Of a DNA stretch of 64,000 bases, positions 2,639-49,988 are shown piece by piece. The stretch lies in assembly GCA_964409945.1 (NCBI GenBank), contig CAYPFJ010000007.1:18635-82634 (forward strand). Reading direction: 5' to 3'. The DNA comes from an uncultured archaeon. Its GTDB lineage: Archaea > Asgardarchaeota > Lokiarchaeia > Sigyniarchaeales > SOKP01. The position numbers and the translations under genes are program-made. Within the stretch, counting starts at the first letter, position 1. The number at the start of each line of letters is the position of its first letter. The notes under the pieces were generated by a model, which had not been told where the DNA came from, ran no database searches, and saw only the letters and a program-made list of their open reading frames with translations.

Positions 2639-2905
2639 ATGAAAATTGAATATCCTTGTATATGTCCTTGTATAAATCTACCAATTGTGCATTATAGTTC
2701 TGAACACCTATTTAAGGGTAAATATAAACATGCTGATGAGATTGATATAAATCATTTTAAGAATTTCTTAAAAAAAACTATTAATTTCAATTTTGATCTA
2801 ATGTTAGAAATTAAAAATAAAGAAAAAAGTGCTTTAAGTGCCATAAAAATTCTAATTAATGATATTCGATTTATGCAAATTCTAGCAGAATTTTCAAATA
2901 ATTAG
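2639..2905 (+). pseudogene. uvdE: 5'-truncated remnant of UV damage endonuclease (UvdE), C-terminal ~75 aa only
   Basis: IVHYSSEHLFKGKYKHADEIDINHFKNFLKK..NFDLMLEIKNKEKSAL matches the UvdE C-terminus as I recall it (KVHLSSPK..RSHADYVD..F..L..IDFMIEAKQKDKAL). Full-length UvdE is about 300 aa. Only 17 nt separate it from the upstream gene. Confidence 0.55.
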
Positions 2906-2942
2906 CAATATATTTTTTAAAGTAAAAAAGCTGTGATTATTG

Positions 2943-3413
2943 ATGAGTGTTATTAAATTACCAAAAATGGAAGAAAAGGAAATAAAAGAAGCAATTAATT
3001 CCCATAACTTATGTAGAATAGCGTTTATTGATGATGAATATCCTTATATTTCACCTTTTCAATATATTTCTATTGAGGATATTTTATATTTTCATTTTAC
3101 TGATTATGGTAAAAAGAAAGAAATTCTTTCGAAGAATCCCAATGTATGTATTTCAATAGAAAATTTTGAACCCAATTTAAGTAGTTATTATTTTATTTCA
3201 ATGCAGGGCAAATTAGAATTAGTTGAAGATAATGAACTTAAGAAGGAAGTTATTAATCAAATGGCAAAGTCCGCGAGGAGCAAATATTCAAAGAATTTTT
3301 TATCCGCCCATGGCTTTGAAAAGAACAAAGGATGGGAGATATTTGCCCAAAAAAATCAACTTATTTATAAATTCAAACAAGTAGGACCTCCAATTGGATT
3401 AAAATCTATTTAA
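2943..3413 (+). CDS. Pyridoxamine 5'-phosphate oxidase-like FMN-binding split-barrel family protein
   Basis: 156 aa from ATG 2943. LCRIAFIDDEYPYISPFQYI..LYFHFTDYGKKKEIL..NPNVCISIE..YFISMQGKLELVED is the typical pattern of Pyridox_ox_2-type proteins. Confidence 0.55.
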   Translation: MSVIKLPKMEEKEIKEAINSHNLCRIAFIDDEYPYISPFQYISIEDILYFHFTDYGKKKEILSKNPNVCISIENFEPNLSSYYFISMQGKLELVEDNELKKEVINQMAKSARSKYSKNFLSAHGFEKNKGWEIFAQKNQLIYKFKQVGPPIGLKSI

Positions 3414-3480
3414 AAATATCCAGATGTGTCTATTTAATCTAGTTATAATATATGAATTTATTTTAATAAAAACTAAAATT

Positions 3481-3550
3481 TGATTTGGTAAAGTGTGGCT
3501 AACTTAATAGAATAAAATCTCATTTTTGTTATTTTATTCCCACCAAATCA
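3481..3550 (-). other. Extended RNA hairpin starting immediately after the stop of the redoxin gene (convergent intergenic region)
   Basis: Minus-strand transcript: UGAUUUGGUG pairs with UACCAAAUCA (10 bp including one G-U). The inner stem GAAUAAAAU/AUUUUAUUC (9 bp) has a 12-nt A-rich apical loop AACAAAAAUGAG and a 19-nt 3'-side bulge. Confidence 0.5.
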
Positions 3551-4027
3551 TTATATTTTATTAATTTTTTCAAGAACTTGTAAAATTTCCTCGTTTTCGG
3601 GAATATCATGCATATTTTTTCCATAATATGCGTATCGAATTATCCCTTTCTTGTCAATTATTAATAATCCAGGCATACGCCCAAGTTTTATCCACCTTTT
3701 TTCTTGTTTTAACATTGTAGCTACGTTTTCGGATTCATCATAAAAGACAGCATACTTTCTTGCATATTTTTGTTCCATTTTTTGAGCATTTTTTTCATTA
3801 TCTACTAAGATTGGATACAAAATCCCATCTAATTTTTCAAATTTTTCAATGTCTCTTCTTAATCTAGCAGCATGCCATCGACAGAAAGGTCAATTGATAT
3901 CTCTAAATAGCACAATTATTACATTTTTTTTATTTTCAAAATCTCTGATGTTGATTGTTTCACCTCTAGAGTTTGGCAAACTAAACTCAACGATCTTACT
4001 ACCAACTAAATTGAATTTATCTTTCAA
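3551..4027 (-). CDS. Thioredoxin-fold PRX_like2/AhpC-TSA family redoxin with in-frame TGA (3890..3892) at the first Cys of the CxxC motif; candidate selenoprotein (UxxC) or nonsense pseudogene; TTG start
   Basis: Own translation of the minus strand: (TTG)KDKFNLVGSKIVEFSLPNSRGETINIRDFENKKNVIIVLFRDIN[TGA]PFCRWHAARLRRDIEKFEKLDGILYPILVDNE.., continuing in frame into track ORF 3551..3820 (..GRMPGLLIIDKKGIIRYAYYG..). Family consensus is F.RG.WCP(F/Y)CR. Total length is 158 codons. Confidence 0.55.
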
Positions 4028-4674: not shown

Positions 4675-5514
4675 ATGAACTCTATAGAAAAATCAGAAGA
4701 AGGTTGGTTAATACCAAAATCTCCAATTGCATTTGAGTACCTAAAAAGATTCAATCGAAATATGGGTATTTTACATTTAGTACAAGGATTGCTAATGGTT
4801 TTATTTGGATTTTTACCTCAACTTGCTTTTTCCAGAGACATTTACACATTTTACCTAAAGTTTGAACTTGTTGGGCCAGATTTTGTTATTTCACCTAATC
4901 CTGCAGTACTTTTCGTCTTTAGCGCTTTAGGTGCATTTGTTGGATCCTTTTTATTGATGTCTGCTATTGCCCATCTATTAATTGCTTACCCACTTAATAA
5001 AAGTTACGTCAAGAATTTAAAAAGAGGAATAAATAAGGTACGTTGGTTTGAGTACGCTTTTTCAAGTTCAGTGATGATTTTCTTAATCGCTATTTTCTTT
5101 GGAGTGTGGGATTTCTGGTCATTGTTTATGATTTTTGTCTTAAATGCTCTGATGAATATGTTTGGTTTAATGATGGAATCATACAATGTATATACGAGAG
5201 AAAAAAATGAGAAGGTTAAATGGGGTCCATTTTATCTAGGTGTTATTGCCGGAGCCGTTCCTTGGATTGTTATTACTGCGTACTTTATAAGTACTGAAAC
5301 GATTGGAGGAGAAGTACCACTATTTGTCTACCTAATATACGGAATTGAATTGTTCTTCTTTAATACATTCGCTATCAACATGATATTGCAATATAAAGGA
5401 GTAGGAAAGTGGAAAGATTATCTATACGGTGAAAAAGTGTATCAACTTTTGAGTCTTGTATCTAAAACATTTCTAGCATGGTTAGTATTTGCAGGAGTAT
5501 TTAGTCCAGCTTAA
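4675..5514 (+). CDS. Heliorhodopsin
   Basis: Blocks are collinear with heliorhodopsin 48C12 as I recall it: LKRFNRNMGILHLVQ (LQNFNRIAGVFHLLQ), RWFEYAFSSSVMIFLIA (RWVEYSLSSSVMIVLIA, counterion Glu), GAVPWIV, LQYKGVGKWKDYLYGEKVYQLLSLVSKTFLAW (LQYKGKGKWSNYLRGERAYIVLSLVAKSALAW, retinal Lys). 279 aa with a 7-TM-like profile. Confidence 0.85.
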   Translation: MNSIEKSEEGWLIPKSPIAFEYLKRFNRNMGILHLVQGLLMVLFGFLPQLAFSRDIYTFYLKFELVGPDFVISPNPAVLFVFSALGAFVGSFLLMSAIAHLLIAYPLNKSYVKNLKRGINKVRWFEYAFSSSVMIFLIAIFFGVWDFWSLFMIFVLNALMNMFGLMMESYNVYTREKNEKVKWGPFYLGVIAGAVPWIVITAYFISTETIGGEVPLFVYLIYGIELFFFNTFAINMILQYKGVGKWKDYLYGEKVYQLLSLVSKTFLAWLVFAGVFSPA

Positions 5515-18299: not shown

Positions 18300-18728
18300 T
18301 TACTCTCCAAGTTCTTTTAAAACGTCTCCAACCATTCCATTAATTTCACCATATGCTATTGCATCTTGAAGATTCCCTTCAATCTGCAAGTCTCCACTCA
18401 TATAAGCACTAGTAGCATCAATATCACCAGAACCCATACCCGCCCAAGTAGCACTTGTTGCTTTCATGGTAACAGATGGGTCTTCAGCTTCACCTTCAGC
18501 ATACTCTACTTGCCCTTCTCCAAATTTTACCCAATATTTATAACCAACATCAGTCCATACAAATTGAACAAGAGTAAGATCCATATCTTCTACTTCTTCT
18601 TTTATATCTTCATTTTCAATAGCAAGTTGTTTAAAAGCTTCACATAATAAAAGAGCATCAGATGGCTTTCTTTCACCAGTCCCATCTCTCATATCTTTTA
18701 AATTTTTAAGTAAGTCATCACTAACCAT
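18300..18728 (-). CDS. SCP2 sterol-carrier-like domain protein
   Basis: ..VTMKATSATWAGMGSGDIDATSAYMSGDLQIEGNLQDAIAYG.. is the typical SCP2 C-terminal pattern. 142 aa. Confidence 0.65.
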   Translation of the reverse strand: MVSDDLLKNLKDMRDGTGERKPSDALLLCEAFKQLAIENEDIKEEVEDMDLTLVQFVWTDVGYKYWVKFGEGQVEYAEGEAEDPSVTMKATSATWAGMGSGDIDATSAYMSGDLQIEGNLQDAIAYGEINGMVGDVLKELGE

Positions 18729-47317: not shown

Positions 47318-47947
47318 TCATATATCCCTTAATTGCTCGAAAAACTCATCTGGATCATCTATTCCAGATTTTAACAATGCATATTCTCGTTGTATTTCAA
47401 GTTCCTTGCTAGTTAAGCTCAAATATTCCTTGTCTAGTTCATCTTGAAAACGTAACCAACAACCCAAAGCATCAGTATTATCTTGCCAGCCTCCAAATAC
47501 AAGTTTACTTAATATATAGTCCTCTTTCGAGGCAACCCAACACTCTAATCCTCCAAAATTAATTCTAACCCTTCTTTTTAAACCGAGCGGTCCAATTTTC
47601 TTATATTTACTATAGCTTTTTCGATAAATGATATAATTATCAAATTTAATAACTTGCTGCTTATCTAAAAACTGTAATAACTGGAGATCTTTTGCTATCA
47701 TTGAAGCAGAAATCCAGTCTTTTATTGGGTAAAATTCATTCTTTTTTAATAGTTCAATATATGTATATATATTATGATTAACTGAATAGATATCAACAAC
47801 AAAATCAATATCTTGTGTTGTTCAAGTCTCAGAATAAATGCTTACTAAAATTCCTCCAACTAAATAATATTTAATACCAAATTCTTTCTCAATTTTTTCT
47901 AAAAAAGTAATGATTTGAAATAAAGCATTTTCATATCGCACTTCCAT
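47318..47947 (-). pseudogene. Minimal nucleotidyltransferase-fold protein interrupted by in-frame TGA (47822..47824) at the conserved Arg position
   Basis: Own translation upstream of track ORF 47318..47701, same frame: MEVRYENALFQIITFLEKIEKEFGIKYYLVGGILVSIYSET[TGA]TTQDIDFVVDIY... Family pattern is GG.a...yg..R.T.DiDf. Confidence 0.5.
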
Positions 47948-47950
47948 AAC

Positions 47951-49460: not shown

Positions 49461-49988
49461 TTATCTGAATATTGTGTGATAAATTATTCTTTCTATTTTT
49501 CGCAAATGTTCATATAATGCACTCCGAGAAATTTTAAAATGAGTAGAGATTTTCTTTGAATTGATTCTACGAGGTATTTCAAAATATCCATGCTGAATAG
49601 CGTAATACACAATTTCTTTCTGACGGTCTGTTAATTTTAAAAAAAGATTTTCATAGTTAGGATGTATATGAGATATGCTTAGAATCTCCAATTCTCTATT
49701 ATAAAAGTAATTTAGGGAAGCAACAAATTCATCAATATTTTTACTTTCTGTTATAATACTTACTAAAAGACGATCTTGATCTAAAATAATAGGAGGATCG
49801 ATAATCAGATCTAGTTTATCGAGGAATTCTTTGGTTTCCTTAACCCAGTTATGCTTAGAAAAGAAAATAAATGATCTCTTGTTTTCAGCATTTCATGATC
49901 TTTCCCTTTTTTTTTCTTCTTGTGGACTAATAATTATCAATTTCCTCCAAAAAGTCGAATATAAAGGGTGGGTTATCGTTCCCTTCAT
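49461..49988 (-). pseudogene. Bat-type HTH_10 transcriptional regulator; reading frame open for 175 codons but interrupted by one in-frame TGA (49893..49895)
   Basis: The C-terminal LTDRQKEIVYYAIQHGYFEIPRRINSKKISTHFKISRSALYEHLRKIERII is an HTH_10 domain. The frame stays open 67 codons upstream of the track's TTG with no start codon. The only ATG (49986-88) lies beyond the TGA: MKGTITHPLYSTFWRKLIIISPQEEKKRERS[TGA]NAENKRSF... Confidence 0.45.

Follow-up and report, generated by a model that had tools for sequence, protein, structure and literature searches.

An Asgard archaeal PrxL gene with a conserved in-frame TGA and a structured RNA element, possibly a SECIS variant, behind its stop codon

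We analysed a stretch of 64,000 nucleotides (hereafter the window) from an uncultured archaeon (Asgardarchaeota; Lokiarchaeia; Sigyniarchaeales; SOKP01), which corresponds to positions 18,635 to 82,634 of contig CAYPFJ010000007.1 in assembly GCA_964409945.1. The gene under study, PrxL (Prx-like), lies on the minus strand and is interrupted by one in-frame TGA, and a structured RNA element follows its stop codon in the 3' untranslated region (3'-UTR). The frame from 4027 to 3551 is open except for this TGA, which is translated in the context VLFRDIN-[TGA]-PFCRWH. The features of the gene are listed below, with selenocysteine written as Sec or U.

3551..4027, minus strand: PrxL coding sequence of 158 codons, with a TTG start (4025-4027), the Sec codon at codon 46 and a TAA stop (3551-3553)
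3890..3892, minus strand: in-frame TGA, read as Sec (U46) at position 1 of the U-P-F-C redox motif on the basis of conservation and alignment
3881..3883, minus strand: TGT, Cys49, the second residue of the redox box, from the translation
3548..3550, minus strand: TGA, a second in-frame stop directly after the TAA, from the sequence

When Cys is placed at the stop, the PrxL translation matches the Pfam family AhpC-TSA (residues 8-132 against profile positions 1-123 of 124, E 3.6e-20) as well as the Pfam family Redoxin (E 2.5e-13). The AhpC-TSA match crosses the TGA, and both halves therefore form one intact thioredoxin-fold domain. The TGA column corresponds to the first Cys of the CxxC motif in a haloarchaeal homolog from Halobellus clavatus (HYCTNC; FFQRDHYCTNCRKQV; BLASTP E 4e-15), and in the closest solved structure (PDB 3hdc) W-C-P-Y-C-R is aligned to N-[TGA]-P-F-C-R. 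The original prediction, which was made from the DNA letters and a list of reading frames, placed a single TGA at the first Cys of a CxxC motif in a 158-codon minus-strand frame, and the translation and both alignments confirm this. The haloarchaeal redoxins and the 3hdc 'thioredoxin family protein' have the same fold as PrxL, carry CxxC likewise at the N-terminus of the first helix and are likewise of uncharacterised function, but they share only ~24% identity with it and have Cys where PrxL has Sec. The residue at position -3 to Sec is Asp, not Thr/Ser, and the motif D-I-N-U-P-F-C is a CxxC-type box; the translation is without the peroxidatic T/S-x-x-C motif of typical peroxiredoxins, and Cys49 is its sole Cys.

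We then compared the gene across Asgard archaea, using 80 loci from a scan that retained one genome per species, plus 2 metagenome contigs. The loci are nearly all labelled as Asgard archaea (i.e. Promethearchaeota/Lokiarchaeia, Hermod-, Thor-, Hod-, Borr-, Jord-, Frey- and Atabeyarchaeia), and their proteins range from 92% down to 52% identity to the window PrxL, with the closest orthologs (85-92% identical) in metagenome-assembled genomes (MAGs) of Promethearchaeota. TGA occupies the Sec codon in all 85 gene copies from these 80 Asgard genomes and 2 metagenome contigs, and Cys occupies the first redox position in none of them, which answers the ortholog comparison that the original prediction had proposed for this column. 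The redox motif reads U-P-Y-C in 46 copies, U-P-F-C in 23, U-P-Y-A in 11, U-G-H-U in two, and U-P-H-C, U-P-Y-S and U-P-H-A in one each. The Cys49 column accordingly holds Cys in 70/85 copies, Ala or Ser in 13/85 and Sec (TGA) in 2/85. At the homologous position, 31 orthologs start with ATG and 24 with TTG, so that a TTG start is ordinary for the PrxL family and loses its force as the counter-argument that it had been in the original prediction.

Purifying selection is seen on both sides of the TGA. In comparisons with informative synonymous divergence from the window (pS 0.25-0.7), the 44 codons that precede the TGA have a ratio of non-synonymous to synonymous substitution (dN/dS) of 0.04-0.30, and the 112 codons that follow it have one of 0.07-0.17. 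These low values indicate that both parts of the gene are maintained as coding sequence in the PrxL frame, and together with the full-length AhpC-TSA match they agree with the earlier view that the two halves are undegraded. This bears directly on the explanation that a Cys codon (TGC/TGT) mutated to TGA in a dead gene or was miscalled during sequencing. Such a change requires only a single substitution, and the window contains at least one other TGA-interrupted gene (a DUF6036 nucleotidyltransferase gene, 47822). An isolated mutation or miscall, however, does not fit a TGA shared by 85/85 copies from several Asgard classes with no ortholog carrying Cys there, nor low dN/dS on both sides of it in a full-length domain, and we regard a pseudogene or sequencing error as extremely improbable. 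The single-substitution argument and the presence of other interrupted genes, both raised earlier against Sec, thus do not hold up.

Two variants of the redox box form groups of their own. Two Borrarchaeum genomes (L068 and L070, at about 1830-2300) contain an upstream tandem PrxL paralog with two Sec codons and the motif U-G-H-U, and U-P-Y-A-K, without the second Cys, marks a separate clade to which one L006 paralog (Sec codon at 1429) belongs. Judged from its sequence, the latter clade would imply a single-selenol mechanism. All of these paralogs have the same 3'-UTR element as the other PrxL genes. In addition, an Asgard-type gene with the RNA element occurs in two MAGs labelled as bacterial (L065, Nanopelagicaceae; L080, Deferrimicrobium), labels that most likely reflect binning contamination.

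Protein databases present the gene differently. In the protein catalogue, full-length homologs of ~157 amino acids (aa) all lie on contigs shorter than ~2 kb and have W at the Sec column (P0001-P0082), while C-terminal fragments of 89-106 aa lie on long contigs labelled Lokiarchaeota/Promethearchaeota. W in all full-length database homologs (about 80) would be expected if TGA coded for Trp or Gly (genetic code 4 or 25). However, the DNA behind two of the W homologs carries TGA, which reads as a stop under table 11. The 'W' therefore arises because metagenome gene callers, which may choose table 4 on such short, AT-rich contigs, translated the gene with that table. Table-4 calls also yield W at a TGA stop beyond the end of the gene (e.g. 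L002 912-1472 and L003 950-1423). Moreover, the redox motif would lose its activity if Trp or Gly took the place of the catalytic Cys. In the window itself (G+C 30.7%), open reading frames (ORFs) under the standard code already fill the sequence, and TGA ends 11 of the 68 long ORFs, so that it is a normal stop codon in the source organism; reading it as sense merges no real genes. Global TGA recoding in the window was thus rejected from stop-codon usage and ORF statistics, and reassignment is scarcely credible as an explanation of the PrxL TGA.

A further alternative is that translation stops at the TGA and that the product is the C-terminal 89-106 aa 'redoxin domain' protein, begun at an internal start. 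Such fragments are indeed annotated in NCBI records of MAGs (e.g. P0083, P0089 and P0114-P0116). However, (i) a protein of this kind would be without the entire redox motif and the first beta-alpha unit; (ii) purifying selection acts in frame on the 44 codons ahead of the TGA; and (iii) the annotated internal start is not fixed, with lengths from 88 to 106 aa. This alternative is very unlikely, and the short 'redoxin' proteins in MAGs are truncated calls of PrxL whose start lies past the in-frame stop.

The conservation of the TGA, the selection on both halves, the alignment of Sec with Cys and the structured RNA after the stop codon bear out the earlier reading of the TGA as Sec in a UxxC motif. 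With membership of a published family added, the sequence evidence makes it highly probable that the gene is an ortholog of the Asgard archaeal PrxL selenoprotein, a predicted 158-residue thioredoxin-fold thiol:disulfide oxidoreductase in which TGA encodes Sec. Bacterial and eukaryotic Prx-like or thioredoxin-fold UxxC selenoproteins were reportedly described by Zhang and Gladyshev in 2008. PrxL itself was described among the five selenoprotein families of Lokiarchaeota; Sec takes the first or both Cys positions of its CxxC box, the protein has no further Cys, and this box was distinguished from the T/S-x-x-C peroxidatic motif of peroxiredoxins (Mariotti et al. 2016, PMC4989117). The window PrxL has Sec at the first box Cys and no Cys outside the box, in line with this description. 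A Prx-like protein is present in 43.2% of Sec-using Asgard archaea (Huang, Xiao and Zhang 2024, PMC11227280), and the supplementary FASTA of that study contains near-identical sequences (Lokiarchaeia_GCA_013375485_U_3 and Lokiarchaeia_GCA_019058365_U; ...VLFRDINXPFCRWHAARLRRDIEKFE..., with X for Sec). GCA_019058365 is the assembly of loci L001 and L011, and its nucleotide identity to the window at the PrxL locus is ~93%.

The window PrxL is ~90% identical to catalogued members and shows no difference from published Asgard PrxL at the protein level; it shares with them the position of Sec in the redox box, the absence of Cys outside the box and a structured RNA after the stop codon. The prediction thus correctly re-discovered a selenoprotein family that had already been published, and did so in the very lineage from which the family was first known. 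The original prediction had expected a redoxin-type selenoprotein to extend the archaeal selenoproteome, an expectation that the 2016 description (PMC4989117) and the later catalogue (PMC11227280) contradict. As a selenoprotein call it adds little, because the Lokiarchaeota selenoproteome has included PrxL since 2016. The two forms distinguished in 2016, PrxL.1 (two Sec) and PrxL.2 (one Sec), may belong to a sister subfamily (FFRGNW-U-SHC / UxxU) and not to the KDKF-type of the window. Beyond archaea, the bacterial and eukaryotic selenoproteins include an entry 'Prx-like thiol:disulfide oxidoreductase, PF00578, UxxC/UxxU' (PMC13188914), whose members also combine an AhpC/TSA domain with UxxC in place of T/S-x-x-C. 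Bacterial Prx-like selenoproteins carry their selenocysteine insertion sequence (SECIS) inside the coding sequence right after the UGA, whereas the presumed signal of the window PrxL lies ~340 nt downstream in the 3'-UTR, as in archaea and eukaryotes.

We next examined the RNA element behind the stop codon, whose parts in the window are as follows.

3482..3549, minus strand: three-helix 3'-UTR RNA element, a presumed SECIS variant, from covariance model R1 and covariation
3549-3543 and 3488-3482, minus strand: helix P1, GAUUUGG paired with CCAAAUC
3539-3531 and 3518-3510, minus strand: helix P2, 9 bp, GAAUAAAAU paired with AUUUUAUUC
3519..3530, minus strand: apical loop of P2, AACAAAAAUGAG, 12 nt, with an A-rich 5' end and AUGAG at the 3' end
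3505-3503 and 3493-3491, minus strand: helix P3, AAG paired with CUU
3494..3502, minus strand: loop of P3, UUAGCCACA, nearly invariant across Asgard classes

The element (~70 nt) is common to the 3'-UTRs of all loci, where it begins at or inside the stop codon, and the sequences diverge after it. In the window, the first two nucleotides of P1 are the G and A of the tandem-stop TGA (3548..3550), and stop-codon contexts across the loci show that in several orthologs the equivalent of this TGA is the sole stop codon. Covariance model R1 matches the window at 3471-3555 on the minus strand (89.6 bits, E about 1e-17) as its sole significant match in the 64 kb, and finds one match after every PrxL stop codon in the 80 loci, including those of the UxxU/UxxA paralogs and of one degraded copy.

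The three-helix shape is supported by both folding and covariation. The single-sequence thermodynamic fold of the window element gives this shape with z = -2.9. In a MAFFT alignment of 61 sequences, 89.6% of cells are paired, compared with 36-58% for slid partners; 15 of the 21 pairs change on both sides, and 0/500 shuffles reach the observed values. RNAalifold predicted no structure from the raw MAFFT alignment, because loop indels shift the very AU-rich arms, and a hand-drawn structure was then supplied and followed by model-based realignment. The resulting model-fitted alignment has 95.7% of cells paired (slid partners 31-58%) and 18 of 21 pairs changing on both sides, figures that come from an alignment which itself favours the structure. 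The P3 stem covaries from G-C to C-G in 13 sequences, and UAGCCA occurs in the P3 loop of 77 out of 83 distinct elements; we presume that this UUAGCCA loop is a protein or ribosome contact.

Other arrangements of the element were considered. The P2 loop reads N-GAAAA...AUGA-N in 30/83 elements, many of them from non-Loki lineages; this form could contain tandem G.A pairs in a K-loop-like, circularly permuted core, and fits the window's own clade poorly. A kink-turn at the three-way junction or the P1 base was rejected: the junction strands lack conservation, and the first two nucleotides of P1, GA, are base-paired to UC with covariation (A-U to G-C in 7 sequences). We also rejected, by eye, a pairing between the UUAGCCA loop and either the Sec-codon region or the junction, since conservation of the candidate partners fails in the UPYA clade and between lineages.

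The sequence beyond the element differs between close relatives. Compared with L011 (3066-3086), the window has an insertion of ~790 bp (2644-3436) that starts ~35 nt past the RNA element and contains two ORFs, one of 88 aa and one that is PNPOx-like (2940-3413; Pfam Pyridox_ox_2, E 7.6e-18). The block conserved between the window and L011 stops just past the element.

Published Asgard SECIS elements provide the basis for comparison. In the lokiSECIS, a type I eSECIS-like element, AUGA precedes and GA follows a 9-bp stem whose 11-nt loop has A's at its start and AG at its end (Mariotti et al. 2016, PMC4989117), and the PatScan pattern of 2024 reads NNGAN, a stem of 7-15 bp, a loop of 8-20 nt, the stem, and N[G/A]ANN (Huang, Xiao and Zhang 2024, PMC11227280). 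The lokiSECIS lies close to the stop codon or overlaps it (PMC4989117, PMC11227280), and standard SECIS tools miss it (PMC4989117). The window element shares with lokiSECIS the 3'-UTR location, the start at or inside the stop codon, the 9-bp stem and the 11-12 nt loop with an A-rich 5' end and the ending (A/C)(U/C)GAG. Among the 83 elements, P2 loops with at least four A among the first six nucleotides number 77, and those ending in AG number 24, including the window's close relatives. Helix P1 and hairpin P3, however, are not part of any published SECIS model. The P2 flanks in the window are GUGG and UAUU, and the equivalent columns are paired in 80-88% of cells of the model-fitted alignment.

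A sister subfamily of PrxL offers a direct comparison. Six sister genes (FFRGNW-U-[SN]HC), one from the metagenome scan (L084) and five from a protein search (L085-L089), all carry a canonical lokiSECIS right after the stop codon (6/6), with loops AAAAAAAUGAG, AAAAAAACGAG and GAAAAAAUGAG, to which the window loop AACAAAAAUGAG is closely similar. Model R1 has no match in the sister loci. In the same subfamily (L084 786-815 and the equivalents in L085-L089), a further conserved hairpin, ACCYUG-NNN-(C)AGGGU, and a GGGAUU motif come directly after the lokiSECIS; the hairpin may serve as a terminator or extend the SECIS. In L086-L089 the sister PrxL is flanked by a gene for a small GTPase of the Arf/Ras/Roc family, and in two of these loci a Sec23-like gene lies on the other side. 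GTPases of this family and Sec23-like genes are typical 'eukaryotic signature' genes of Asgard archaea.

Several observations weigh against the reading of the window gene as a selenoprotein served by this RNA. For the RNA, (i) the AUGA/GA quartet, the defining feature of Asgard and eukaryotic SECIS elements in the literature, is absent in the window element, where the matching columns are covarying Watson-Crick or G-U pairs; (ii) a scan for AUGA-stem-GA in the 3'-UTRs, the whole window and all fetched loci gave only scattered weak matches, the one clean match being the sister locus L084, and the PatScan pattern of 2024 does not fit the element; (iii) the canonical model R2, built from the six sister sequences of one gene family, found over 477 kb only its six training elements, with none in the window or the 80 loci at E <= 1; and (iv) Rfam SECIS models have no match in the window at the gathering threshold and none at E <= 10 in 3380-3620. 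Without filters, R2 matches on the window 3'-UTR only a 9-nt loop segment (AAAAAUGAG, 6.9 bits), and no Rfam family of any kind matches the window at gathering thresholds. For the gene, no close Cys-form ortholog of PrxL was found, and the family is known from genome analysis and has been called never experimentally characterised (PMC4989117, PMC13188914). For the decoding machinery, ARAGORN found no tRNA genes in the 64-kb window, and no Sec machinery genes turned up there, although no systematic search for them was made; the presence of Sec machinery in the source genome is thus surmised from the literature and from a relative that is ~93% identical at the locus.

That relative, GCA_019058365, is listed with Sec-containing SelD, HdrA, FrhD, FrhA and DsbA-like proteins besides PrxL, and the Sec trait occurs in 85.9% of Lokiarchaeia/Helarchaeales genomes (Huang, Xiao and Zhang 2024, PMC11227280). 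The search for a SECIS in the 3'-UTR that the original prediction had suggested had a divided outcome, i.e. no match to Rfam SECIS or canonical lokiSECIS, but a conserved, lokiSECIS-related structured element directly after the stop.

The absence of the AUGA/GA core and of an Rfam SECIS match also favours an alternative in which the selenoprotein is real and the three-helix RNA is not its SECIS but a terminator, a stability element or another regulatory RNA. The element is, moreover, seen beside one gene family only, so that co-inheritance is inseparable from function. Against this, the 3'-UTRs contain no other conserved sequence and diverge right after the element, and neither the 80 loci nor the window has a canonical lokiSECIS anywhere that could serve instead. 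The element also sits in the lokiSECIS position, overlapping the stop codon, matches lokiSECIS in the dimensions of its stem-loop and in its loop motif, and accompanies every Sec-containing paralog. A role unrelated to Sec insertion therefore appears unlikely. From these comparisons of sequence and covariation, we conclude that the element is probably a lokiSECIS variant that keeps the stem-loop and has a three-way junction with two further conserved helices in place of the kink-turn core. More tentatively, it is possible, though somewhat short of an even chance, that KDKF-type PrxL of most Asgard classes inserts Sec by means of a SECIS without the kink-turn core, built as a lokiSECIS-like stem-loop on a three-way junction with UUAGCCA on the third arm. 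The papers of 2016, 2024 and 2026 (PMC4989117, PMC11227280 and PMC13188914), their per-gene SECIS tables aside, contain no description of a three-way-junction SECIS or of a K-loop form. The architecture of the three-helix element may thus be the sole new aspect of the locus.

If the gene is decoded as proposed, UGA codon 46 would be read as Sec by Sec-tRNA(Sec) and the archaeal Sec-specific elongation factor, directed from ~340 nt downstream by the element at 3549..3482, which starts within the tandem stops. In the predicted active site, U46-P-F-C49, Sec46 would attack and Cys49 would resolve via a selenenylsulfide.

Should the element be the functional signal, Sec decoding in these archaea would not depend on the AUGA/GA quartet, which has been put forward as the eukaryote-like feature of Asgard SECIS, and the machinery would recognise the conserved apical loop, perhaps together with the P3 hairpin. 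Within the same protein family, and apparently in the same genomes, one subfamily has the AUGA-stem-GA lokiSECIS and the other the three-way-junction element. This natural pair could show which SECIS features the Asgard Sec machinery reads, a question that bears on the proposed archaeal origin of eukaryotic SECIS. A practical consequence concerns database searches for Sec/Cys pairs, which should beware of truncated MAG calls (89-106 aa) and of 'W' at the Sec position.

Three further features of the window were noted, i.e. two other frames with a TGA and the gene that adjoins PrxL.

47318-47950, minus strand: DUF6036-type nucleotidyltransferase gene with a TGA at 47822-47824; the Pfam match (E 1.6e-05) spans the stop
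49893-49895, minus strand: TGA in a frame that is of low complexity upstream (QEEKKRERS before the stop) and downstream resembles an independent gene with a C-terminal helix-turn-helix-like region
4675-5514, plus strand: heliorhodopsin gene (Pfam PF18761, E 3.7e-86), adjoining PrxL

No further selenoprotein genes were found in the window, the TGA frames at 47822 and 49893 being off Cys positions and without a SECIS-like element. In the DUF6036 gene, the TGA lies inside the motif GG...SET-[TGA]-TTQDIDFVVD, and no SECIS-like element was detected nearby; the gene is probably a pseudogene or the result of a base-call error. The frame at 49893-49895 is probably not an interrupted gene, and may be the second of the two TGA-interrupted, non-Cys genes that had been reported in the window, of which the DUF6036 gene is convincing and this one doubtful. 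The neighbourhood of heliorhodopsin and PrxL also occurs in the related MAG locus L001, and the gene order common to the window and GCA_019058365 consists of hexapeptide transferases, a CN-hydrolase, PrxL, heliorhodopsin and a 546-aa ORF.

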